Source: an uncultured Candidatus Rokubacteria bacterium (GTDB lineage: Bacteria > Methylomirabilota > Methylomirabilia > Rokubacteriales > CSP1-6). Taken from it: a DNA stretch of 64,000 nucleotides. This document shows positions 2,155 to 37,451 of the stretch, piece by piece. The DNA is taken from positions 832,001 through 896,000 of the forward strand of contig CAVWWD010000003.1 of the NCBI GenBank assembly GCA_963758635.1. The letters run 5' to 3'. A program made the translations under genes and the position numbers. The notes under the pieces were generated by a model. The model had not been told where the DNA came from. It did no database searches and worked only from the letters and a program-made list of their open reading frames with translations. Position 1 is the first letter of the stretch. Every line of letters starts with the position of its first letter.

Positions 2155-2952
2155 GTGCCCCTCGCGTACTACTCCCGGGCCGCCACCGAGGAGTTCTGGT
2201 CCGAGCACTGGGGAGGGCAGGACGTGGACGCGCTCCTCGACGTGGCCCGCCGGTCGCCCCTCACCGCGCTCGTGGAGTCCGGGCTCCCGCGCGCGGGCGT
2301 GGTGGTGGAGGCGGGATGCGGGCTGGGCCAGTACGTGATCCTGCTGCGCGAGCGCGGGCACCGCGCGGTCGGCGCGGACTGGAGCGTCGACGCGCTCCGC
2401 CGCGGGCGGGCGCGCGCGGCCGGCGCGCCGCTCGCCGCCATGGACCTCGGCGCCCTCGGGATGCGCGACGGCGCGGCCGCGGCCTACCTCTCGCTGGGCG
2501 TGGTCGAGCACGACGTGGCGGGTCCGGAGCGGCTCCTCGCCGAGGCCCGCCGCGTGCTGGCCCCGCGCGGCCGGCTCGTGCTTTCGGTGCCGTACCTGAA
2601 CGGCGTCCGGCGGCTCTTCCGCGCCGCCCTCCTCCGGCGACAGCGCGCGGTGCGCGCGGCCGGCGGCGAGTTCTACCAGTACGCGTTCACGCGCCCCGAG
2701 GTGCGGCGGTTCCTGGATCGCGCGGGGTTCGACGTGCTCTCGCTGTCGCCCTACGACCCCGCGCGCATTTTGAGGCAGGCGCTCCGCGCCGCGGCCCGGC
2801 GCGACGGCGCCCGCGCGCCACGGCCGGCCACCGTGCCGCGCGCGGCGGGCGGCGGACGGCCGGCGGCCGGCGTCGCGCGCCGCCTGCTCTACACCGGGCC
2901 CGCGCTGCGCCTGCTCGGGCACATGATCCTCGCCGTGGCCGAGAAGCGGTGA
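2155..2952 (+). CDS. Class I SAM-dependent methyltransferase
   Basis: VVEAGCGLG motif I; SLGVVEH; EARRVLAPRGRLVLSVP. Confidence 0.85.
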   Translation: MPLAYYSRAATEEFWSEHWGGQDVDALLDVARRSPLTALVESGLPRAGVVVEAGCGLGQYVILLRERGHRAVGADWSVDALRRGRARAAGAPLAAMDLGALGMRDGAAAAYLSLGVVEHDVAGPERLLAEARRVLAPRGRLVLSVPYLNGVRRLFRAALLRRQRAVRAAGGEFYQYAFTRPEVRRFLDRAGFDVLSLSPYDPARILRQALRAAARRDGARAPRPATVPRAAGGGRPAAGVARRLLYTGPALRLLGHMILAVAEKR

Positions 2953-3749
2953 CGGCGGCGCCGCGCGTCAGCGTGGTGATGGGCGTGCGCGACGGCGCGC
3001 GGTGGCTCGCCGAGGCGGTGGACAGCGTCCTGGGCCAGACCCTCGCCGACCTCGAGCTGATCGTGGTCGACGACGGCTCCACCGACGCCACGCCCGACCT
3101 CCTCACCCGCTACCGCGACCCGCGGCTGACCGTGCTGCGCCAGCCCGCCGGCGGCCTCGCGCGCGCGCTCAACCGGGGGCTCCGGCTCGCCTCGGCGCCA
3201 CTCGTGGCCCGGCTCGACGCCGACGACGTCGCGCTGCCCGAGCGGCTCGCCCGCCAGGTGGCCTTTCTCGACGCGCGGCCGGAGGTCGGCCTCCTGGGCA
3301 GCGCCTGCCGGGCCATCGGTCCGTCGGGGGATCCGCTCGACGACGAGCGCCCTCCCCAGGACGACGCGGCGATCCGCCGCGCCCTGATCCGGCGGAACCC
3401 GTTCGTGCACTCCACGATCGTCGTGAGGCGGAGCGTGATCGACCGGGCCGGGGGCTACGACGAGTCGCTCCCGGTGGCGCAGGACTACGAGCTGTGGATG
3501 CGGGCGAGCGGCGTCACGCGGATGGCCAACCTCCCCGACGTGCTCGTGCTGCGGCGGCTCGGCCCCGATCGCGTGTCGGTGGCGCGCGACACGGAGCGGC
3601 TGCGCGCCGAGGTACGCGTGAAGCTGACCGCGCTGCGCGCCGGCGTCTACCCCGCGTGGTGCGGGGTGTTCCTCGTGAAGCCCCTGGCCGCCCTCGCGCT
3701 GCCCGCGCCCGCTCGCCACGCGCTCCGCCGGTGGCGCCGGAGGGGTTGA
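2949..3749 (+). CDS. Glycosyltransferase family 2
   Basis: PRVSVVM..SVLGQT..ELIVVDDGSTD; RLDADD; GTGA overlap with the upstream stop. Confidence 0.9.
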   Translation: MTAAPRVSVVMGVRDGARWLAEAVDSVLGQTLADLELIVVDDGSTDATPDLLTRYRDPRLTVLRQPAGGLARALNRGLRLASAPLVARLDADDVALPERLARQVAFLDARPEVGLLGSACRAIGPSGDPLDDERPPQDDAAIRRALIRRNPFVHSTIVVRRSVIDRAGGYDESLPVAQDYELWMRASGVTRMANLPDVLVLRRLGPDRVSVARDTERLRAEVRVKLTALRAGVYPAWCGVFLVKPLAALALPAPARHALRRWRRRG

Positions 3750-3774
3750 CTGCGCCCTGACCCGTCCCTATTGT
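3746..3774 (+). promoter_or_regulatory. Putative sigma70 promoter TTGACT-N17-TATTGT
   Basis: Near-consensus boxes with optimal spacing in a very GC-rich background; no gene follows directly. Confidence 0.5.
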
Positions 3775-3805
3775 TCCGCCATTGTCCAGCCGGCGGTTCC
3801 CCGTT

Positions 3806-3879
3806 CGGGTTGTGACGGAATGGGGATCTCGCCTTCAGCGAGGGGGTGAACACCGCGGTTCTGCGGACCCGCGGCGTGC
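3806..3879 (-). repeat. Dispersed ~80-bp motif, family C, copy 1 (reverse orientation)
   Basis: Reverse complement GCACGCCGCGGGTCCGCAGAACCGCGGTGTT..CTCGCTGAA..ATCCCCATTCCGTCACA aligns without gaps to the copy starting at 10245. Confidence 0.8.
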
Positions 3880-3973
3880 GGCAGCGGGCAGTCGCGTCCA
3901 GCGGGGGCTCGCGTGTCGTGACGTAGTCGGCCGCCAAGCTCCCGGAAAAGCGACGGTCCGGCGCCGCGGCGCA

Positions 3974-4002
3974 TTGACAAGCCGCGACGGTTCCCGGATC
4001 AT
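3974..4002 (+). promoter_or_regulatory. Putative sigma70 promoter TTGACA-N17-GATCAT
   Basis: Perfect -35, 17-nt spacer, weak -10; lies upstream of the FecR-like remnant. Confidence 0.35.
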
Positions 4003-4158
4003 CCGACGGACAGCGCATGGCCACCGCCTCCGCGACCGCTCCAGCGTGTTCGACGTTGCCGGGCCGGTCTCGATGCCCGGCCCGCTCATGAGCCCGCCCG
4101 ACCACCAGACCAGCGTCCGTGACGACGCGATGAAGACTCGAGCAGGAGAGCCAACCCG

Positions 4159-6813: not shown

Positions 6814-7069
6814 GTGCGTCGTCAGCGGGTGCGGGCGGGTGGCGCGCACGTGCGTGTCTCACGGGTGCGGGCACTCAAGGCAGGGCGGGTGGGTACGATA
6901 TGCGGGGCGGGAGGGTGAGCAGGCTCAGCTGCGAAGCAGTGCAAGGACAGGGAGTAAGGTGAGGTGTGGTGTAAGGATGCAACTGGGAGCAGGATGCATT
7001 GACACCTCGCGGCGCGACCCCGCCCGGCGGGCGTTGCGCGCGGCGTGGACGCTGGGGTACAGTGCGGCC

Positions 7070-7657
7070 ATGCCCGGTGTCCTCGGTCGCATCAAGCGCG
7101 GGCTTCGTCGCGCGCTCGGCCACGAGGATCTGTGGCATCCGCGCACGATGAAGCTCCCCGGACGGGGAGCGCTCAACGCGTACCGCATGCAGGAGCAGCA
7201 CGTCTTCTGCAAGGAGCGTCCGCTCTCGCACCGGTGCCTGCAGGTCGGCGTGCCCAACTGGGCCGACGAGAAGTTCGGCCCCCAGTGGATCTCCGTCGAC
7301 CTGTTCGACCACCGTCGGTGCATCGACCATCAGATGGACATCTGCCACATGGACGGCTTCGAGGACGAGTCGTTCGACGCCGTCTGGTGCTGCGCCGTCC
7401 TCGAGCACGTGCGCGATCCTTTCGCGGCCGCGCGCGAGATCTCGCGCGTGACGCGCCCGGGCGGCGAGATCTGGATCGAGGTGCCGTTCGTCCAGCCCTA
7501 TCATCCAACCGGTATCCTCCACACTCACGGCGGGGACTTCTGGAGGTTCACGCCCGAGGGCGTCCGCGAACTGTTCCCGCACTTCGAGTCGGTCGCGTGC
7601 GGGGCCATCGACGAGGGCGGCATCCTCCTGCACGCGCGCAAGAAGCCGGGGAAGTGA
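7070..7657 (+). CDS. Methyltransferase type 11-like protein
   Basis: DESFDAVWCCAVLEHVRDP..EISRVTRPGG..VPF..DFWRFTPEG. Confidence 0.8.
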   Translation: MPGVLGRIKRGLRRALGHEDLWHPRTMKLPGRGALNAYRMQEQHVFCKERPLSHRCLQVGVPNWADEKFGPQWISVDLFDHRRCIDHQMDICHMDGFEDESFDAVWCCAVLEHVRDPFAAAREISRVTRPGGEIWIEVPFVQPYHPTGILHTHGGDFWRFTPEGVRELFPHFESVACGAIDEGGILLHARKKPGK

Positions 7658-9677
7658 TCCGGGCGCTCTCCCCCGCGCCCGCGCGGCTCTCCGACCGGCT
7701 GTCGCTCCGACCCTCGCTCTACTCGCTCGATCCCTCCGGAGAGGATACCGGATCGTCGCGCTGGGAGATTGCCGCCGGCGACGACGGCGGCCCACGGCCC
7801 ATGCTCTGGATCCGCCGCGGCCGGCGCGCGGCGTTCCGCGCGTCGCTCCGCGGCCACGTGACCCTCGAGGCGCGCGCCGACGGCCCGCTGGCCGTCGGTG
7901 TGGTCTCCGCGCCGGGGCGGGCGTCGAAGCATGCCGCGCCCGGCCCGGACCCGGCCGCGTTCGACCTGGGCGACCTGACGGGCGAACCGGTCGAGATCGT
8001 CCTCGAGGCCGTGGCGGGCGGCGCCGACGGCGAGGGCTGGCTCCGCTGCGAGAGCCCGTCGCTGATCGTGCGTCCCTCGGCGCTCGACGTGGCGGGCGTC
8101 GCCCTCGGGAAGACGGCCGGCCTGCTGCTCACGCGCGGCCCCTGGGCGGCGGCGCGACGGGTGGCGGAGACGCTCGCGAGCGCCGACCCGGATGTCACGT
8201 ACGCCCGATGGATCGCCCGGCACGAGCGGCCGGCGCGCGCGGCGGACGTGCCGGCCGTCCGCCCGCTCGTCACGTTCGTGGTCGAGGGCGGTCCGGACGT
8301 TCGTCCGGAGTGGGTCGAGCGCTGCCTGGCGTCGATCCGGTCCCAGACGGTCACGGGCTGGGAGATCTCCGGCGACCTCGCCGGGGCGCGCGGCGAGTAC
8401 GTGGCGCTGCTCGCGGGTGACGGGGAGGTGGCCGCCGACGCGGTCGACCACGTGGGCCGGCGGCTCGCCGCGGATCCCGGGATCGGCATCCTCTACTCGG
8501 ACGAGGACCGCCGCGATCCCGCCACGAGACGCCGGCACGCGCCGTTCTTCAAGCCGGACTGGTCGCCCGAGCACTTCCTGACGCGCATGTACACGGGACA
8601 GCTCGCGGTGTGCCGGCGCGACCTCGTGGTGGCGGCGGGCGGCCTGCCGTCTGGGCACGGCGCCGCCCGGCTGTACGACCTGATGCTCCGCCTCGTGGAT
8701 GCGGGCGCGCGCGTCGCGCACGAGCCGCGCGTGATGTGGCACGGCTACGCGGCGCCGGCCGCCGACGGGGGCGGAGAGCCGGCGCGGGCCGCGCTCTCCG
8801 CTCACGTGCGGCGGACCGGGCTTCCGGGCGGGGTGGGCCCCGGGCTCGATGCCGCTCTCACCGCGTCGCGTTCGCCGTCCGCGGCGCGCCGCTCGTGAGC
8901 ATCGTGATCCCGATCCGCGACCGGGTGACGCTCCTGCGCCGGTGCCTGGACGCCATCCGAACGTTCACCGACCCGTCGCGTTACGAGGTGATCGTCGTCG
9001 ACCACGGCAGCGTGGAGCCCGAGACCCGGCGCTTCCTCGCCTCGTGCGGCCATGGCGTCGTGCCCGCGGCCGGGGACTTCAACTTCGCGCGGCTGAACAA
9101 CCTGGGCGTGCGCCACGCGTCGGGAAGCCACCTGCTCTTCCTCAACAACGACACCGAGCCCCTCCACCGCGACTGGCTCACCGCGCTCCTCGAGTGGTCG
9201 CAGCAGCCGGAGATCGGCGCGGTCGGCGCCAAGCTCTACTACCCGGACGGGCGCCTGCAGCACGTCGGGATCGCACTCGGCGTCGGCGCGGGCGCCGCGC
9301 AGCTCTTCCGCGGCAGTCCCGGCGCGCACCGGGGATACTTCGACAGCGCCCTCGTGGTGCGGAACTGCTCGGCCGTGACCGCCGCGTGCCTGATGACCCG
9401 GCGCGCGGTCTTCGAGGAGGCCGGAGGGCTCGACGAGCGGTTCGCCGTGGACTTCAACGACGTGGACTACTGCCTGCGCGTGGGCCGCCTCGGCTACCGG
9501 GTGCTCTTCACCCCGCATGCGCGGCTCTTGCATCACGAGTTCTCGACGAGGCCGCGCGCCGTGCGCCGGTCCGAGCACGAGCTGTTCCGCCGCCTCTGGC
9601 GCGACCTGATCCCTCGGGATCCGTTCTACAGCCCCCACCTCTCGCGGCGCTTCACGGACTGCCGGATCATCTCCTGA
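7654..9677 (+). CDS. Two-domain glycosyltransferase family 2 (indel near 8855)
   Basis: ILYSDED..PFFKPDWSPE, then PLVSIVIP..FNFARLNN..LLFLNNDTE..AVTAACL..FNDVDYCLR. Confidence 0.85.
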
Positions 9678-31568: not shown

Positions 31569-31604
31569 CCCACCGCTCGGCATTGGTCTGACGCTCGGGG
31601 CTCA
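31569..31604 (+). repeat. Family A element, 3'-half copy
   Basis: CCCACCGCTCGGCATTGGTCTGACGCTCGGGGCTCA; the terminal TCA is the mltG stop codon. Confidence 0.8.
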
Positions 31605-32660
31605 CTGGCGCGGCTTGCTCGACCGGTATCGCGCCACCGCGGCATTGTGCTCGGCCAGGCTCGTGGAGAACTTGTGCTGCCGCTCGTTCATCGCCACGAA
31701 GTACAGGTAGTCGGTGACGGCGGGGCGCACGGCGGCGTCGATGGCCGCGCGACCGGGGCTGCCGATGGGACCGGGCGGGAGCCCGACGTAGCGGTAGGTG
31801 TTGAAGGGCGAGTCCACCTGGAGGTCGGCACGCGTCAGGGCGTGGCCCTGCTTGTCCAGGGCGTACTGCACGGTGGGGTCGGCCTGGAGCGGGATGTCCC
31901 GCTTGAGCCGGTTCCAGAACACGCCCGAGATCAGCGGCATCTCCTTCCGGTCGACCGCCTCGCGCTCGATGATGGAGGCGAGCGTCAGGAGCCGGTGCAG
32001 CGACAGGTCGCGCGCCTTCGCCAGCTCGAGCGTCTCCCGGGAGATCTGATCCCGCATGCGCGTCAGCATCCGCCCGAGGATCTCCTCGGGCGTCATCCCC
32101 TTCACGAGCTGGTACGTGTCCGGGAACAGGTAGCCCTCCAGGCTCTCGGCCTCGACCCCCACGCTCCGGAGGAACGCGCGGTCGTGGGCCACGCGCAGGA
32201 GGTCTTCGGCTGCGGCCACCCGCTCCGACTCGACGGCGCGGGCGAGCTCGACCAGCGTCCCGCCCTCGCGCAGCAGCACGGGATGGTGGAGCACCTTGCC
32301 GCTCTCGAGCAGGCGCAGCACGGTCATGGTGGTCGCGCCCTGGGGAATCTCGTACTCGCCGGCCTTGAGGCTGCGGGCGCTGCCCCTCGCCCAGGCCAGG
32401 ACCACGAAGCCGAGCCGGCTCCTGATCACACCTGCCTCGTCAAGGCGCTGGACCATCGTCAGGAGGCTGAGCCGGAGCGGGATGTCGACCACCCGGGGGC
32501 TCGACTGCACGGTGGGAGAGGGGGTGAACGTCCACCATGCATGGAGAGCCACGAAGACGGCCGCGAGTGCGAGGAGGAGACGAACCGCCCTCCTCCACGT
32601 CAGGCCAGGCCGAGCGCCGGGCTCGACGCGGGCCTTGAGGGTCCAGGGCCGATCCGTCAT
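31602..32660 (-). CDS. mltG: Endolytic transglycosylase
   Basis: LKAGEY; LEGYLFPDTY; LASIIERE; LQADPTVQY; SPFNTY..GLPPGPI.SPG; YLYFVA. Confidence 0.92.
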   Translation of the reverse strand: MTDRPWTLKARVEPGARPGLTWRRAVRLLLALAAVFVALHAWWTFTPSPTVQSSPRVVDIPLRLSLLTMVQRLDEAGVIRSRLGFVVLAWARGSARSLKAGEYEIPQGATTMTVLRLLESGKVLHHPVLLREGGTLVELARAVESERVAAAEDLLRVAHDRAFLRSVGVEAESLEGYLFPDTYQLVKGMTPEEILGRMLTRMRDQISRETLELAKARDLSLHRLLTLASIIEREAVDRKEMPLISGVFWNRLKRDIPLQADPTVQYALDKQGHALTRADLQVDSPFNTYRYVGLPPGPIGSPGRAAIDAAVRPAVTDYLYFVAMNERQHKFSTSLAEHNAAVARYRSSKPRQ

Positions 32661-32725
32661 CGTTCGCGCTTACTTTGCCCGGACTTGGACGGTGAGTCAA
32701 CTTCCCAAGCGCTCATCGGCCCCTC

Positions 32726-32734
32726 TGTTATACT
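32726..32734 (+). promoter_or_regulatory. Extended -10 promoter TGnTATACT for the rpoA gene
   Basis: TGTTATACT lies 45 nt upstream of the ATG, with a GGAGG RBS. Confidence 0.55.
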
Positions 32735-32779
32735 GTGTGGCCGGGGTCGTCGCCCCGCAATCTTCCTGGAGGAAATCAC

Positions 32780-33787
32780 ATGCCGCAGCTGCTGATGCCC
32801 AACCGTCACGAGTGGCTGAGCGAGGATCGGGGATACGGCAAGCTCGCCGTCGAGCCGTTCGAGCCCGGTCTGGCCCTCACGGTGGGGAACGCGTATCGCC
32901 GCGCCCTGCTGTCGTCCATCCACGGGGCGGCGCCGACCTGGGCGAAGATCGAGGGCGTCCTGCACGAGTTCTCGCACCTGCAGGGCATCACCGAGGACAC
33001 CCTGAACATCATCATGAACCTGCGGACGGTCGTGTTCGCGCTCCACGTGAACCGGCCGAAGATCTTGAGGCTCCGCGCCACGGGGCCTCGCACGGTGAAG
33101 GCGGGAGACTTCGAGCCCGACGCTGACGTGGACATCCTGACGCCGGACGTGATCGTGGCGGTGCTGGACAAGGACGGGTCGCTCGAGCTCGAGCTGTGCG
33201 TGGAGCGCGGGCGCGGCTACCAGGCCGCGGAGCGCCGCGAGCCGGAGGCCCTGCCCATCAACGCGATGCTCATCGACTCGGACTTCTCTCCCGTCAAGCG
33301 GGTCAACTTCCACGTGGAGTCGCCCCCGGGGGAGGCGCCCGCGCAGGAGCGGCTCGTCCTCGAGGTGTGGACCAACGGCAGCGTGACCCCCCAGGCCGCG
33401 GTGGCCGAGGCGTCCCGCATCCTCGAGGACCACTTCAGCCTGCTGAGCGACTTCCCGCAGCGGCCCGCGGAGGAGACGGAGCGCCGCGAGCCCGGCGCGG
33501 AGCCGCTGCCCAGGGTGGAGCTGAACGAGCACCTGTTCAGGAACGTCGACGAGCTGGAGCTGTCGGTGCGGGCGTCCAACTGCCTCAAGACCGCGAACAT
33601 CCGCACGATCGCCGACCTCGTCCAGAAGACGGAGTCGGAGCTCCTGAAGACGAAGAACTTCGGCAAGAAGTCCCTCAACGAGATCAAGACGATCCTGGGA
33701 GAGATGGGGCTCTCCCTGGGACTCCGTCTTGAGCCGGAAGAGCTGGAGCGGCTCCGCGCCCTGTACGAGCGCACGTTCGAGAGCTAG
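32780..33787 (+). CDS. rpoA: DNA-directed RNA polymerase subunit alpha, stand-alone and probably a paralog
   Basis: [26 protein letters not shown]; alpha[26 protein letters not shown]; no rpsD or rplQ neighbours. Confidence 0.92.
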
Positions 33788-33817
33788 GTCGGCCGCCCTC
33801 CCGCTTCCCGCGCGTCC

Positions 33818-33852
33818 CATCACGGCCCCCGGCGACCCCGGGGGCCGTGGTG
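33818..33852. terminator. 15-bp hairpin between convergent genes
   Basis: CATCACGGCCCCCGG-cgacc-CCGGGGGCCGTGGTG; no clear U-tract. Confidence 0.55.
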
Positions 33853-33923
33853 TGTCCGGGACCGGGTCAGGACGCGCCCCCGTCGTAGGGCGGCCCGCCG
33901 GGGCACGCCTGCCAAGCGGCGCG

Positions 33924-34973
33924 TCACCTCGCCGCCGGCCTCGCCTCGAGGGCCCCGAACGCCACCGCGAGCCGGCGCGGGTCGGAGGGCTGTCCGCGGC
34001 TCGCGCGGGCGAACCGGAACCGCAGCAGGTTCTCGTCGGGCCGAAGCGCCGGCGCGGGGAGCCTCACGTGATACTCGCTCCAGCCCCGATCCAGGAGCAG
34101 GCGTCCCGCGCGCGAGCCGTTGACCGACACTTCCACGTGCTGGCACGGCAGCTCGTCCTTGACCACGAAGGGTGCCAGCCGCAGCCGGAGGTCGTGATCG
34201 GACCGGCCGAGCGGCCCGATCCGGAGGACGGACTCGTCGCCCTCCGCCCACACGAACGGCGCCGCGCCGGCCCAGCGCTCGTCTCCCGACCAGCCGGAGA
34301 GCATCGCCGCCCGTCCCTCATGGCGGCCGAACGCGACGGTGGCCGCCGGCGGTCCGACGGCGGCGGCCGCATCGGCGCCGGTCCGTTGCGCCCCGAGGGT
34401 GCGCTCGTAGCTCACGAAGAAGGGCAACAGCAGCGCGGCGGCGCCGGCGGGGAGGACCCACAGCCAGCGCCACGCGGGACCGGGACTCTGCGGCGCGCCG
34501 GGCAGGGCCACGCGGGCGAGGAGGGCGCCGCTCACGGTTCCGAGCAGGGCGCCCCCGACGATGTCGATGGCGAAGTGGGCCTGCAGGTAGAGCCGGGCCG
34601 CCGCGGTGAGGACAGCGAGCAGGAACACCACGGGGCCCAGCCGCGGATAGGCCCGCGCGGCCACGGCGGCGAAGGCGAACGCGATGGTGGCATGGCCGGA
34701 CGGGAACCCGTAGCTCGACGCCGTGCTCGAGGGCCGCGGCGACTCCACCACCAGCTTCAGGACGTTGGCGAGGATCCCCGCGGCCACGACGCCCGCCAGC
34801 GCCACGACGCCGAGCCGGGCGAGACGACTCCGCCCCGTGGCGCGACCCGCCACGACGAGCCCGACGCTCAGCGCGCCCGCGACCGCGCCGTGTCCGAGCG
34901 CGCTCGCCGCCCGCATGACGTGGTACGCGCCCGGAACGGATGCGACCGCGCATCCGGCGTCGATCGGATCCAC
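33924..34973 (-). CDS. PAP2 family phosphatase with a C-terminal beta-sandwich-like extracellular domain
   Basis: K.VVESPRP; FPSGH; RLYLQAHFAIDIVGG. Confidence 0.85.
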   Translation of the reverse strand: MDPIDAGCAVASVPGAYHVMRAASALGHGAVAGALSVGLVVAGRATGRSRLARLGVVALAGVVAAGILANVLKLVVESPRPSSTASSYGFPSGHATIAFAFAAVAARAYPRLGPVVFLLAVLTAAARLYLQAHFAIDIVGGALLGTVSGALLARVALPGAPQSPGPAWRWLWVLPAGAAALLLPFFVSYERTLGAQRTGADAAAAVGPPAATVAFGRHEGRAAMLSGWSGDERWAGAAPFVWAEGDESVLRIGPLGRSDHDLRLRLAPFVVKDELPCQHVEVSVNGSRAGRLLLDRGWSEYHVRLPAPALRPDENLLRFRFARASRGQPSDPRRLAVAFGALEARPAAR

Positions 34974-34982
34974 GCGCGGATT

Positions 34983-37451
34983 CTACTCCCTCACATCGGC
35001 GGCGCCTCCCCGTCCAGCGCGATCCGCTCCGTCGTGCGCGATCCCCAGCGCGTGACCCAGACGCTGACGCCGTCCGACTCCACGATCACCGCGCCATCGC
35101 GATCCGTCCGGTAGCACGCGCGCGCCCGCCGCTTGAAGCCGCGCGAGGGTCTCCGGGCGAGGGTGCTGGAAGGGGTTCCGGGCTCCCGCCGAGATCACCG
35201 CGAGCGTGGGTCGTGTGGCGGCCAGGAACGGCTCCGAGCTTCCGAAGCGGCTCCCGTGGTGCGCCACCTTCAGGACGAGGGCGGGGGCGGGGGGCCCGCG
35301 CGCGACGATCTCCTGCTCGGCCCGCCAGCCGATGTCCCCGGTGAAGAGGAGCGACACGCCGCGCCAGTCCAGCCGCATCACGAGCGAGGCGTCGTTCTCG
35401 CTGCGCGCGTCCACGTCGGTCCCAGCACGGCAACGGGCTTCGGCGTCGGGCCTTGCGCGGCCTCGTCGGCCGCGCGGGGCGCCGTGGGGTGGAGCATGGT
35501 GACGAGCGCGGATCCCATCTGGAGCCGCTGACCGGAGGCGAGCACCCGCCGGGGGGCGCCCGACGCGGCGATGGCCCGGAGCGTGTCCTCGGTTCCCTTG
35601 CCCCAGAGGCCGTTCTCCCAGAACTCCCCGACCCGGAAGTTGCGCGCGACGGCGGCGAGTCCTCCGGAGTGGTCGGGATCGGAGTGCGACACGACCACGG
35701 CGTGGAGGTGGGTGACCGGGCGGTTCCAGAGGAACGGGGCGAGGATGCGCTCTCCGACGTTGAAGCGCCCAGGGCCTCCGGGGCCGCCGTCCACCAGGAG
35801 CCGCTTCCCGTCGGGAAGCTCGACCAGGGCGGCGTCGCCCTGTCCCACGTCGAGGAAGGTCACCCGTAGCCGGCCGTCCGATGGTCGCACCCACGGCCAG
35901 AGCGTGAGCGCCAGCACCAGGAGCGCGAGGCTTCCCACCGCTGCGCGCACCGCGGCGCCGGCGCCGAGCCAGGGGAGGAGCGCGGCCGCGGCGTACCACG
36001 CGACCATGCCGAGCCAGTCGGGAGCGGGCAGGTGCACCATGGCCCACGGGACGCACGCGACCACCCAGACAGACGCCTTCAGCAGGACGACCACCAGCCA
36101 GACGAAGTTGAAGAGCGCGGAGGCGGCGAGGTCGCTGAGCAGCGAGAGCGTCAGGGCCAGGAGCCCGAGCGTGGTGACGGCGGCGGACAGCGGCACCACC
36201 ACGAGGTTGGCGACGACGCCGGCCAGCGAGAGCTGGTTGAAGTGCAGCAGCATCACCGGGGTGACCCCGGCCTGCGCGGCGAAGCTGACGGCGAGGCTGG
36301 CGGCGAGGATCCTCGGGCACCGCGCATGCGAAAGCGCGGCCGTGAGAGCGGGCGCCAGGTGGACGATGCCCGCCGTGGCGGCGAAGGAGAGGAGGAAGCC
36401 GGGGTCCCACAGGTCGCCCGGCCGCCAGGCGAGCACGGCGAGCGCGGCCAGGGAAAGCGCGTTCAGGAGCTGTGACTCGCGATCGAGCAGCACGCCGAGC
36501 AGCAGGGCGAGCCCCATGAGAGTGGCCCGCACCACGGACGGCTGGCCGCCCACGATCGACGCGAAGGCGATCAGGACGATGCCCGCCGCGACGGCGGTCG
36601 CGCGGCGAGGCAGCCGGGCCAGCGTGAGGACGAGGAAGACCGAGGACGCGAGGAGCGCCACGTTGAAGCCCGAGACGGCGAGCACGTGGTAGACGCCGGC
36701 GCGACGGAACGCCTCGTCGGTCTCGCGCGGGAGCCCACGGCGCTCGCCGAGGACGAGGCCGGCGAGCAGTGCCGCCGACCCCTCGGGCACGTGGCTGCCG
36801 ATGGTGGCGACGGCCCAGCGCTTCACCCGCACCGGCCACGGGGGCGCCTCCGGCGACAGCGGGGTCAGGCGATCGCCCCGGCCGCTCCCCACCAGGAGGA
36901 TGCCCTCGCGCCTCAGGTGGGCCGGGTAGTCGAAGGCCCCCGGGTTGCGGAAGCCGATCGGTCGATGGAGCGTGAGCTGCGCCGCGATCCGCTGGCCCGC
37001 GGCGAGCGGCGCCGTCTCGCCGAAGATCGTGACCTGCACCCGGCCCTCCGCCGGCCGCCGGCCTTCCGGCTCGATCAGCGCGTCGACGTCCAGGAGGAGT
37101 CGCGAGCGGTCCGGCGTCCACCGGATGGGCTCCTCGACGAGGACGCCTTCCACGCTCATGCGCGGGGACAGCGGCTGCATCACGAGGTGCTCGGGGAGAG
37201 GGCGGGGCGGGCGCGCCGCGCAGGGCGCCGAGTGTCGCGACGGCCCCCAGCAGGAGGGCGCTGGCCGTGCGTGACGCGCGCAGGCCGAGCGCGAGCGCGC
37301 CGGCGCCGAGCAGCGCGAGGGCGGCGCCAGAAACCCACGCGGAGGACAGCGGCAGCCAGGGCGTGGCGGCCAGGCCGGCCACGAAGGCGGCGGCCACCGG
37401 CAGCAGCGGAGCCGCGGCGAGGCGGCCTCGAATGCGTGGAGGAGGGCTCAC
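34983..37451 (-). CDS. comEC: Competence protein ComEC/Rec2 (several indels)
   Basis: RNPGAFDY; HVLAVSGFNV; FLDVGQGDA; SHSDPDHSGG; LKVAHHGS; ISAGARNPFQHP. Confidence 0.9.
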   Translation of the reverse strand: MSPPPRIRGRLAAAPLLPVAAAFVAGLAATPWLPLSSAWVSGAALALLGAGALALGLRASRTASALLLGAVATLGALRGAPAPPSPRAPRDAAAVPAHERGRRPRRGAHPVDAGPLATPPGRRRADRAGRPAAGGGPGAGHDLRRDGAARRGPADRGAAHAPSTDRLPQPGGLRLPGPPEARGHPPGGERPGRSPDPAVAGGAPVAGAGEALGRRHHRQPRARGVGGTARRPRPRRAPWAPARDRRGVPSRRRLPRARRLGLQRGAPRVLGLPRPHAGPAASPRDRRRGGHRPDRLRVDRGRPAVRGAGHSHGARPAARRAARSRVTAPERAFPGRARRARLAAGRPVGPRLPPLLRRHGGHRPPGARSHGRAFACAVPEDPRRQPRRQLRRAGRGHPGDAAALQPALAGRRRRQPRGGAAVRRRHHARAPGPDALAAQRPRRLRALQLRLAGGRPAEGVCLGGRVRPVGHGAPARSRLARHGRVVRRGRAPPLARRRRRGARSGGKPRAPGAGAHALAVGATIGRPATGDLPRRGTGRRRPGRASRREAAPGGRRPRRPWALQRRRAHPRPVPLEPPGHPPPRRGRVALRSRPLRRTRRRRAQLPGRGVLGERPLGQGNRGHAPGHRRVGRPPAGARLRSAAPDGIRARHHAPPHGAPRGRRGRARPDAEARCRAGTDVDARSENDASLVMRLDWRGVSLLFTGDIGWRAEQEIVARGPPAPALVLKVAHHGSRFGSSEPFLAATRPTLAVISAGARNPFQHPRPETLARLQAAGARVLPDGSRWRGDRGVGRRQRLGHALGIAHDGADRAGRGGAADVRE

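Follow-up and report, generated by a model that had tools for sequence, protein, structure and literature searches.

A second RNA polymerase α subunit in Rokubacteria probably pairs with its ribosomal-operon paralogue as an oriented heterodimer

Bacterial RNA polymerase (RNAP) is taught as α2ββ′ω, an enzyme with two identical α subunits. The only departure known from experiment is that of Francisella, in which two different subunits, α1 and α2, form one α heterodimer (Mukhamedyarov et al. 2011, PMC3294249), and PDB entry 6wmp lists ‘alpha 1’ and ‘alpha 2’ chains. Here we describe an α-subunit gene, rpoA, that lies outside the ribosomal operon in DNA from an uncultured Candidatus Rokubacteria bacterium; the window analysed is a stretch of 64,000 nucleotides (nt), positions 832001–896000 of contig C3 of genome G000 (GenBank assembly GCA_963758635.1, contig CAVWWD010000003.1). 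A sequence-only reading had proposed that this orphan gene encodes a second, independently regulated α that could form alternative RNA polymerases. Our computational analysis points to another arrangement, in which one RNAP likely holds an oriented heterodimer of the orphan and operon α subunits, a reading to which we give a probability of about 0.65.

Other rpoA duplications have been described in Chloroflexus spp., Streptomyces avermitilis, Psychromonas ingrahamii and Leptospira borgpetersenii; these duplicates are identical or recent or, in Chloroflexus, carry no drastic substitutions in the dimerisation or β/β′ regions, so that the copies are probably still equivalent (PMC3294249). In Rpo3/Rpo11 (RPB3/RPB11), the α-like heterodimer of archaea and eukaryotes, the larger subunit contacts the β-like subunit and the reduced one the β′-like subunit (PMC3294249). 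Our literature search, which did not extend to subscription journals and supplements, found no paper on rpoA of Rokubacteria or Methylomirabilota, and on rpoA paralogues or duplications it found the Francisella and plastid cases only.

The orphan open reading frame (ORF) is listed from a GTG, at window positions 32735–33787 on the plus strand; translation likely begins from the ATG at 32780, so that the intact gene (32780–33787, +) encodes 335 amino acids (aa), not counting the stop codon. For membership of the RpoA family we used the equivalog profile TIGR02027 and the presence of a dimerisation domain, an insert domain and a C-terminal domain (PF01193, PF01000 and PF03118) in one chain of about 310–340 aa. 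The orphan protein scores 319.8 bits with TIGR02027 (cut-off 227.8; the operon paralogue, at 283.1, also passes), and its Pfam domains RNA_pol_L, RNA_pol_A_bac and RNA_pol_A_CTD, at 66.2, 93.5 and 90.8 bits, all exceed their cut-offs; α chains in the PDB match it at E values of 6e-83 to 1e-32. The gene is not in the usual place, rpsM-rpsK-rpsD-rpoA-rplQ, and sits between mltG and a PAP2-domain gene followed by comEC. A search of the genome returned two rpoA matches, both on the 1.08-Mb contig C3 and about 490 kb apart, so the pair is no binning artefact. The second copy (C3:374826–375758), 42% identical to the orphan, lies in the order rplF-rplR-rpsE-rplO-secY-map-rpsM-rpsK-rpsD-rpoA-rplQ. What the sequence-only reading had said of the gene itself therefore stands: an intact 335-aa rpoA between mltG and PAP2, with an extended −10, a ribosome-binding site (RBS) and a downstream hairpin, that is a second copy outside the ribosomal operon and not the simple relocation of an only rpoA. 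Because rpoB, rpoC and rpoZ each occupy a single locus in the genome, the two α subunits share one β, one β′ and one ω. At G000:C3:347817–351763 and 351911–355877 the rpoB model and the rpoC model are each matched by two adjoining pieces; for rpoB, a gap of about 220 nt leaves model positions 215–242 without a match, which suggests lineage-specific insertions.

The key sign that the two subunits may differ in their roles lies in the segments by which α contacts its partners. Hydroxyl-radical footprints on E. coli α place β at residues 30–55 and 65–75 and β′ at 175–185 and 195–210; β′ binding alone suffers from insertions at 180 and 200 and from substitutions at 86 and 173, K200 is required for it, and two-residue insertions at 200 abolish it (PMC3294249). 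Residues 186–201 of αII reorder into a hairpin upon β′ binding (PMC13202282). Each Rokubacteria paralogue lacks a conserved motif in one of these regions. The motif VLHEFS, kept in the orphan protein (codons V60–S65, 32957–32974, +) and invariant in the orphan alignment, corresponds to E. coli 64–69 (VLHEYS), within the β-protected segment 65–75. The pattern HE[FY]S at this place is present in 92/92 distinct orphan-type sequences, in 21/21 single-copy outgroups and in E. coli; the 20 operon-type loci and the 120 operon-type database proteins listed all lack it, the segment there being variable or deleted. The motif TDYxKL (RVGxxTDYxKL, E. coli 191–202) has the opposite distribution, being found in 20/20 operon-type loci, 117/120 of the listed database proteins, 20/21 outgroups and E. 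coli, and in 0/92 orphan-type sequences, which thus lack the conserved β′-side hairpin (TD[YL]xKL with K200). In the window’s gene, RVGxxTDYxK (E. coli ~191–200) is replaced by SPPGEAPAQ (codons S181–Q189, 33320–33346, +), a variable loop rich in Pro, Gly and Ala that differs in length and sequence across all 24 aligned orphan copies. Because the loss is reciprocal, a homodimer of either paralogue would lack one motif, and the mixed pair alone has both.

Of the classical β-assembly residues, in E. coli numbering, R45 is present in 24/24 orphan and 20/20 operon copies and L48 in 23/24 and 20/20; R45 loss of the Francisella kind was considered as a signal of orientation and ruled out, since both copies keep this residue. 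Paralogue-specific residues of the dimer helices include F35 in the orphan versus Y in the operon copy, S50 versus I, V or A, and, at R219, E versus R or Q. The operon copy keeps K86.

The C-terminal domains (αCTDs) of the two subunits have followed different courses. In the orphan protein the domain spans Pfam residues 248–307 (33521–33700, +) and contains R265, N268, C269, G296, K298 and S299, which we take to be the DNA-binding (265) determinant of E. coli αCTD, together with E261. The sequence-only reading had reported that the DNA-binding residues (SVR..N, N.G.KS) are kept; all six residues listed here are found in 24/24 orphan copies, and the orphan CTD is nearly invariant among relatives. 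Operon copies in the window’s own family keep R265, N268, G296, K298 and S299 and carry C269A and E261P; in families f3 and f4 the operon protein ends about 10 aa past the N-terminal domain (NTD) in 11/11 loci (237–255 aa), and rplQ follows. Identity of the CTD to single-copy outgroups is 0.69 for the orphan versus 0.43 for the operon copy, with means within each clade of 0.92 versus 0.71. Because the orphan α carries the conserved αCTD and the operon CTD is relaxed, and deleted in two families, the orphan is no accessory subunit. The difference is consistent with a division of labour, with the orphan α as the subunit that would supply the constrained CTD.

Both rpoA types could be read in 36/40 relatives within the order, the orphan type at 59–83% identity and the operon type at 37–49%; by family, both are present in 21/24 genomes of the same family and in 15/16 genomes of other families. 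The count of 36 takes in G015, in which the operon copy is fragmented and contains one TAG, and G027, which has only 43 aa of the orphan copy, at the end of a contig; in G035 the orphan-type match is partial. Among the 40, three genomes have the orphan type only, one has nothing and one (G025) has a single copy. We also sampled 150 genomes of the phylum besides G000; these are incomplete metagenome-assembled genomes (MAGs), and their match numbers are not strict copy numbers. At least two rpoA matches occur in 88/105 sampled genomes of the order (76/93 in family f1, 11/11 in f4 and 1/1 in f3), and in three f1 genomes the best E value is about 1e-70, so that a full orphan match is probably lacking. 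Among 45 genomes of sister orders, 40 have one match, four have two and one has none. An operon-type match at identical coordinates and with near-identical scores in one f8 and one f1 genome (G061:C124:1638–2567 and G091:C191:1638–2567) probably reflects one contig that was placed in two bins, and this sister-order ‘second match’ would then be accounted for.

For synteny, the ORFs of all fetched loci (103, some genomes being represented twice) were scored by phmmer against the proteins of this genome. Where the upstream flank reaches at least 900 nt, 85/86 orphan-type loci have a divergent mltG, and where at least 3 kb follow downstream, 47/52 have a convergent comEC; in 20/20 operon-type loci of relatives rpoA lies between rpsD and rplQ. 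Sister orders and Nitrospirota have a single rpoA, in the ribosomal operon. One MAG has two orphan-type copies on different contigs (L097 and L061), the former lacking the mltG and comEC neighbours; either L097 represents a third copy or the bin is mixed. Five records titled Verrucomicrobiia, Acidoferrum, Gaiellaceae or Binatia (L038, L043, L064, L073 and L075) have an orphan locus of the Rokubacteria type at 73–82% identity; L038, L043 and L073 show flanking genes and L064 and L075 one neighbour each, and all five are likely mis-binned or mislabelled.

To place the duplication we built a maximum-likelihood tree of 61 rows (LG+C20+F+G4 with posterior mean site frequencies) rooted on E. coli, with five Nitrospirota and ten sister-order rows as further outgroups. 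The tree recovers the orphan sequences (24 rows) and the operon sequences (20 rows together with that of family f2) as clades with support of 100/100 each; these two are sister groups (99/99), separate from the sister orders and from Nitrospirota, on stems of 0.37 and 0.40. Trees in which one or the other paralogue joins the sister orders are rejected by approximately unbiased (AU) tests (p 0.008 for each); the groups tested were named after seeing the tree, and long stems are involved. The sister grouping persists in a quick tree of 196 NTD columns that leaves out the CTD and both motif regions. The sister clades, the AU tests and the reduced-column tree therefore argue for duplication on the stem of the order over transfer, and point to an origin of both paralogues at the base of the Rokubacteria order. 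The 120 listed database matches to the operon copy are all 72–98% identical; the few with names are mostly called Rokubacteria or Methylomirabilota, and none of these 120 is an outside neighbour.

The single-copy genome G025 is the only f2 genome (loci L130 and L154; 73% complete) and, among the sampled genomes, the only one of the order with a single rpoA of its kind, which lies in the operon and has both motifs and a full CTD; its mltG slot holds serA, a hisS-like gene, purA and mltG, without rpoA. The tree nests this gene basally in the operon clade, and trees that exclude it from there are rejected by an AU test (p 0.013). Either the orphan copy was lost or missed in G025, or the operon copy lost VLHEFS only after the f2 split. 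Locus L137 of sister family f12 (G141:C3:119105–129958) has two rpoA about 3 kb apart, at ORFs 6913–8151 (−) and 2944–4122 (−), in the order rpsM-rpsD-rpoA-rplQ ... rpsK-rpoA. The first has both motifs; the second, on a long branch (0.69), keeps HEFC and has lost TDYxKL, and is possibly an independent, younger duplication in the same direction.

Both paralogues are under purifying selection. Nei–Gojobori dN/dS (the ratio of nonsynonymous, dN, to synonymous divergence) is 0.038–0.186 for the orphan (11 pairs) and 0.126–0.249 for the operon copy (12 pairs), below 0.25 for both. The presence of the orphan with the operon type in 36/40 relatives and its dN/dS of 0.04–0.19 show that it has been neither lost nor left to decay in related genomes. 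Evolution is faster in the operon copy: over one set of four congeneric genomes its dN is 0.075–0.143 versus 0.020–0.033 for the orphan, 3–4 times higher, and its NTD p-distance is the larger in 63/66 matched genome pairs. We rejected a description of the orphan as the ‘conservative’ paralogue overall; the NTDs lie at about the same distance from the single-copy outgroups (identity 0.46 for the orphan, 0.43 for the operon copy), and the difference lies in the CTD.

Conservation also argues that the orphan gene has its own promoter. An extended −10-like element, TGTTATACT (32726–32734, +), precedes the gene, and the pattern TGNTATA[ACT]N occurs 37–84 nt 5′ of the start in 67/89 distinct upstream regions of relatives, against a chance level of 0.00075 per 160 nt (calculated from 58 sites in the 6.17-Mb genome, both strands). 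The promoter call rests on this conservation because a consensus scan gave neither a −35/−10 pair nor a T-run terminator at the orphan gene. An RBS, GGAGGA (32768–32773, +), lies 6 nt 5′ of the ATG, and relatives have GGAGG or GGGGG at the same place. The 5′ end of the orphan transcript is predicted about 7 nt after 32734. The predicted 5′ leader (32735–32779 in the window) starts with a small GC hairpin (32740–32758, +), a weak feature whose folding equals that of shuffled sequences (z 0.04). Among the relatives’ leaders, 53/67 have a hairpin of at least 4 bp directly after the −10 (shuffled mean 29.4, maximum 41), short, GC-rich and variable in stem sequence; RNAalifold on 29 leaders, whose alignment is out of register, gave no consensus pairs. 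The hairpin may be a 5′-end stabiliser or a regulatory element. A search of Rfam with window positions 32400–34000 gave no match at E values up to 1. Between the convergent rpoA and PAP2 genes lies a perfect 15-bp GC hairpin (33818–33852, +), within an 86-nt region of folding z −2.49; it has no U-tract and is a possible terminator. Independent transcription of the orphan gene is thus predicted, with good support from conservation, and this part of the proposal of an independently regulated second α is supported in that the gene has its own conserved promoter-like motif; its other part, alternative polymerases, is not supported in that form.

Metatranscriptomes are compatible with expression of both genes. 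Four runs from three studies contain short contigs that match the orphan rpoA exactly or almost exactly, with 0 differences over 145–248 nt in X1, X2 and X4; X1, X3 and X4 also contain contigs with 0–1 differences to the operon rpoA, so that both genes are found in the same runs. The X2–X4 contigs start no further upstream than about 32830, and we did not use them as evidence for a transcript start.

We propose that the orphan α, which keeps VLHEFS within the segment that β protects in E. coli, would sit on β as αI, and that the operon α, which keeps the TDYxKL hairpin within the β′-protected segment, would sit on β′ as αII. The orphan would supply the conserved DNA- and activator-contacting αCTD, the CTD of the operon α would be relaxed or dispensable, and the orphan rpoA would be transcribed alone, outside ribosomal-operon control of the S4 type. 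Several points weigh against this reading. R45 and L48 are kept in both copies, so by that criterion either could bind β, unlike Francisella α2. The orphan’s changes at K86, V173, V180 and K200 are conservative (K86R, K200R). The single f2 rpoA with both motifs implies that a one-α state is viable near the clade. The assignment of protomers depends on E. coli footprints taken second-hand, and interfaces differ between lineages (PMC13202282). Contigs from RNA libraries are compatible with DNA carry-over and give no stoichiometry, levels or ends. A wider proposal, which we favour only slightly, is that the oriented heterodimer is obligate throughout the Rokubacteriales and arose independently of Francisella, with the orphan bearing the only constrained CTD and f3 and f4 having a one-CTD RNAP, a step towards RPB3/RPB11.

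The explanation offered by the sequence-only reading, that each α homodimerises to give two populations of RNAP that respond differently to promoters and activators, one of them linked to the expression of ribosomal proteins and the other to its own promoter, was also raised for Francisella by Charity et al. in 2007 (quoted in PMC3294249). It would accord with the retention of R45, L48 and most dimer-helix residues in both copies and with the orphan’s own promoter-like element. We consider it quite unlikely: an orphan homodimer would lack the TDYxKL hairpin and an operon homodimer VLHEFS, an f3 or f4 operon homodimer would give an RNAP without any αCTD, the genome has only one β, β′ and ω, and the homodimer model, when tested in Francisella, was not borne out (PMC3294249). 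Since either homodimer lacks one assembly motif altogether, one enzyme with one of each α fits better. An intermediate state, with the heterodimer as main form and a minor enzyme built on an orphan homodimer, has a precedent in the weak α1 homodimer proposed for Francisella (PMC3294249), and the orphan’s ancestral dimer residues F35 and S50, its R45 and its conservative K86R and K200R changes are compatible with it; the loop that replaces its β′ hairpin is nevertheless variable in every aligned copy, and in E. coli mere two-residue insertions at 200 abolish β′ binding (PMC3294249). We regard this too as unlikely.

It is harder still to suppose that one copy has left RNAP, the orphan alone building the enzyme and the operon copy being a decaying or re-purposed NTD protein. 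The faster evolution of the operon copy (the NTD distances and the 3–4-fold dN) and the loss of its CTD in f3 and f4 would suit such a history; however, its dN/dS of 0.13–0.25, its constant place between rpsD and rplQ in 20/20 loci and its retention of R45, L48, K86 and the very TDYxKL hairpin that the orphan lacks make it improbable, as does the absence of interruptions in all 20 operon-type genes of relatives in the tree, a set to which the broken G015 copy does not belong. The genomes are MAGs, and some records with an orphan locus are titled as other phyla, so an artefact deserves consideration, whether the contig was mis-binned or chimeric or the gene came from another phylum by horizontal transfer; we judge it extremely unlikely given that both copies share one contig here and also in G036, G038 and G040, that synteny is conserved, that the paralogues are sisters and that AU tests reject the alternatives.

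If the two subunits do form an oriented heterodimer, the parallel with Francisella is close. Both lineages keep two divergent, non-identical rpoA, one in the ribosomal operon and one elsewhere, that stem from a lineage-specific duplication followed by faster evolution; in both, β and β′ determinants have been lost asymmetrically so that the full set exists only in the mixed pair, and the predicted β-side α has lost the residue at E. coli 200 (K200T in α1, the whole hairpin here). The differences are as clear. The phylum is another, and the paralogues are sisters inside the order; because the duplication is internal to an order of Methylomirabilota, it does not descend from that of Francisella α1/α2, and on this sequence evidence the Rokubacteria arrangement is a convergent case. 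Both copies here keep R45, which is Q in Francisella α2; what has been lost is whole loops (VLHEFS and TDYxKL), and the genomic roles are reversed, the predicted β binder being the operon copy there and the orphan copy here. Two families have one α without a CTD, and the present system is known from sequence alone. The other bacterial duplications likewise give two rpoA per genome, but here the loss is reciprocal and fixed across the order. With Rpo3/Rpo11 the likeness is an asymmetric platform, towards which the CTD-less operon α of f3 and f4 would be a step, by analogy only; the operon α keeps domain 2 except for the VLHEFS loop, and equivalents of RPB10/RPB12 are not implied. Compared with the canonical single RpoA (E. 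coli, L152; Nitrospirota and Methylomirabilales loci), the orphan has the same three domains, R45, L48 and the 265 determinant, but it is not in the ribosomal operon, has no TDYxKL hairpin and exists alongside a paralogue.

As a phylogenomic marker and in MAG quality sets, rpoA is treated as a single-copy gene. A genome that truly has two may therefore be flagged as contaminated, or a tree may be built with the wrong paralogue. A natural oriented heterodimer, if real, would offer a means of asking what each αCTD does, with relatives from which one CTD has been removed for comparison, and the question matters for how promoters and activators are organised in a soil group that is widespread and uncultured. 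The α dimer has been predicted to be prone to duplication and subfunctionalisation (PMC3294249), a prediction that a second independent, order-wide case would support.

The immediate neighbours of the orphan gene differ in their conservation. The mltG (YceG) gene (31602–32660, −), identified by Pfam and divergent from rpoA, and comEC (35378–37183, −), also identified by Pfam and downstream, are conserved; further out are comEC, an acyltransferase gene and argH. The Pfam-identified PAP2-domain gene between rpoA and comEC (33924–34973, −), convergent with rpoA, is not a conserved neighbour, and among relatives’ orphan loci it has a weak partial match in L090 only. The PAP2 domain covers residues 57–155 of its product, and the C-terminal stretch of about 190 residues has no Pfam match.

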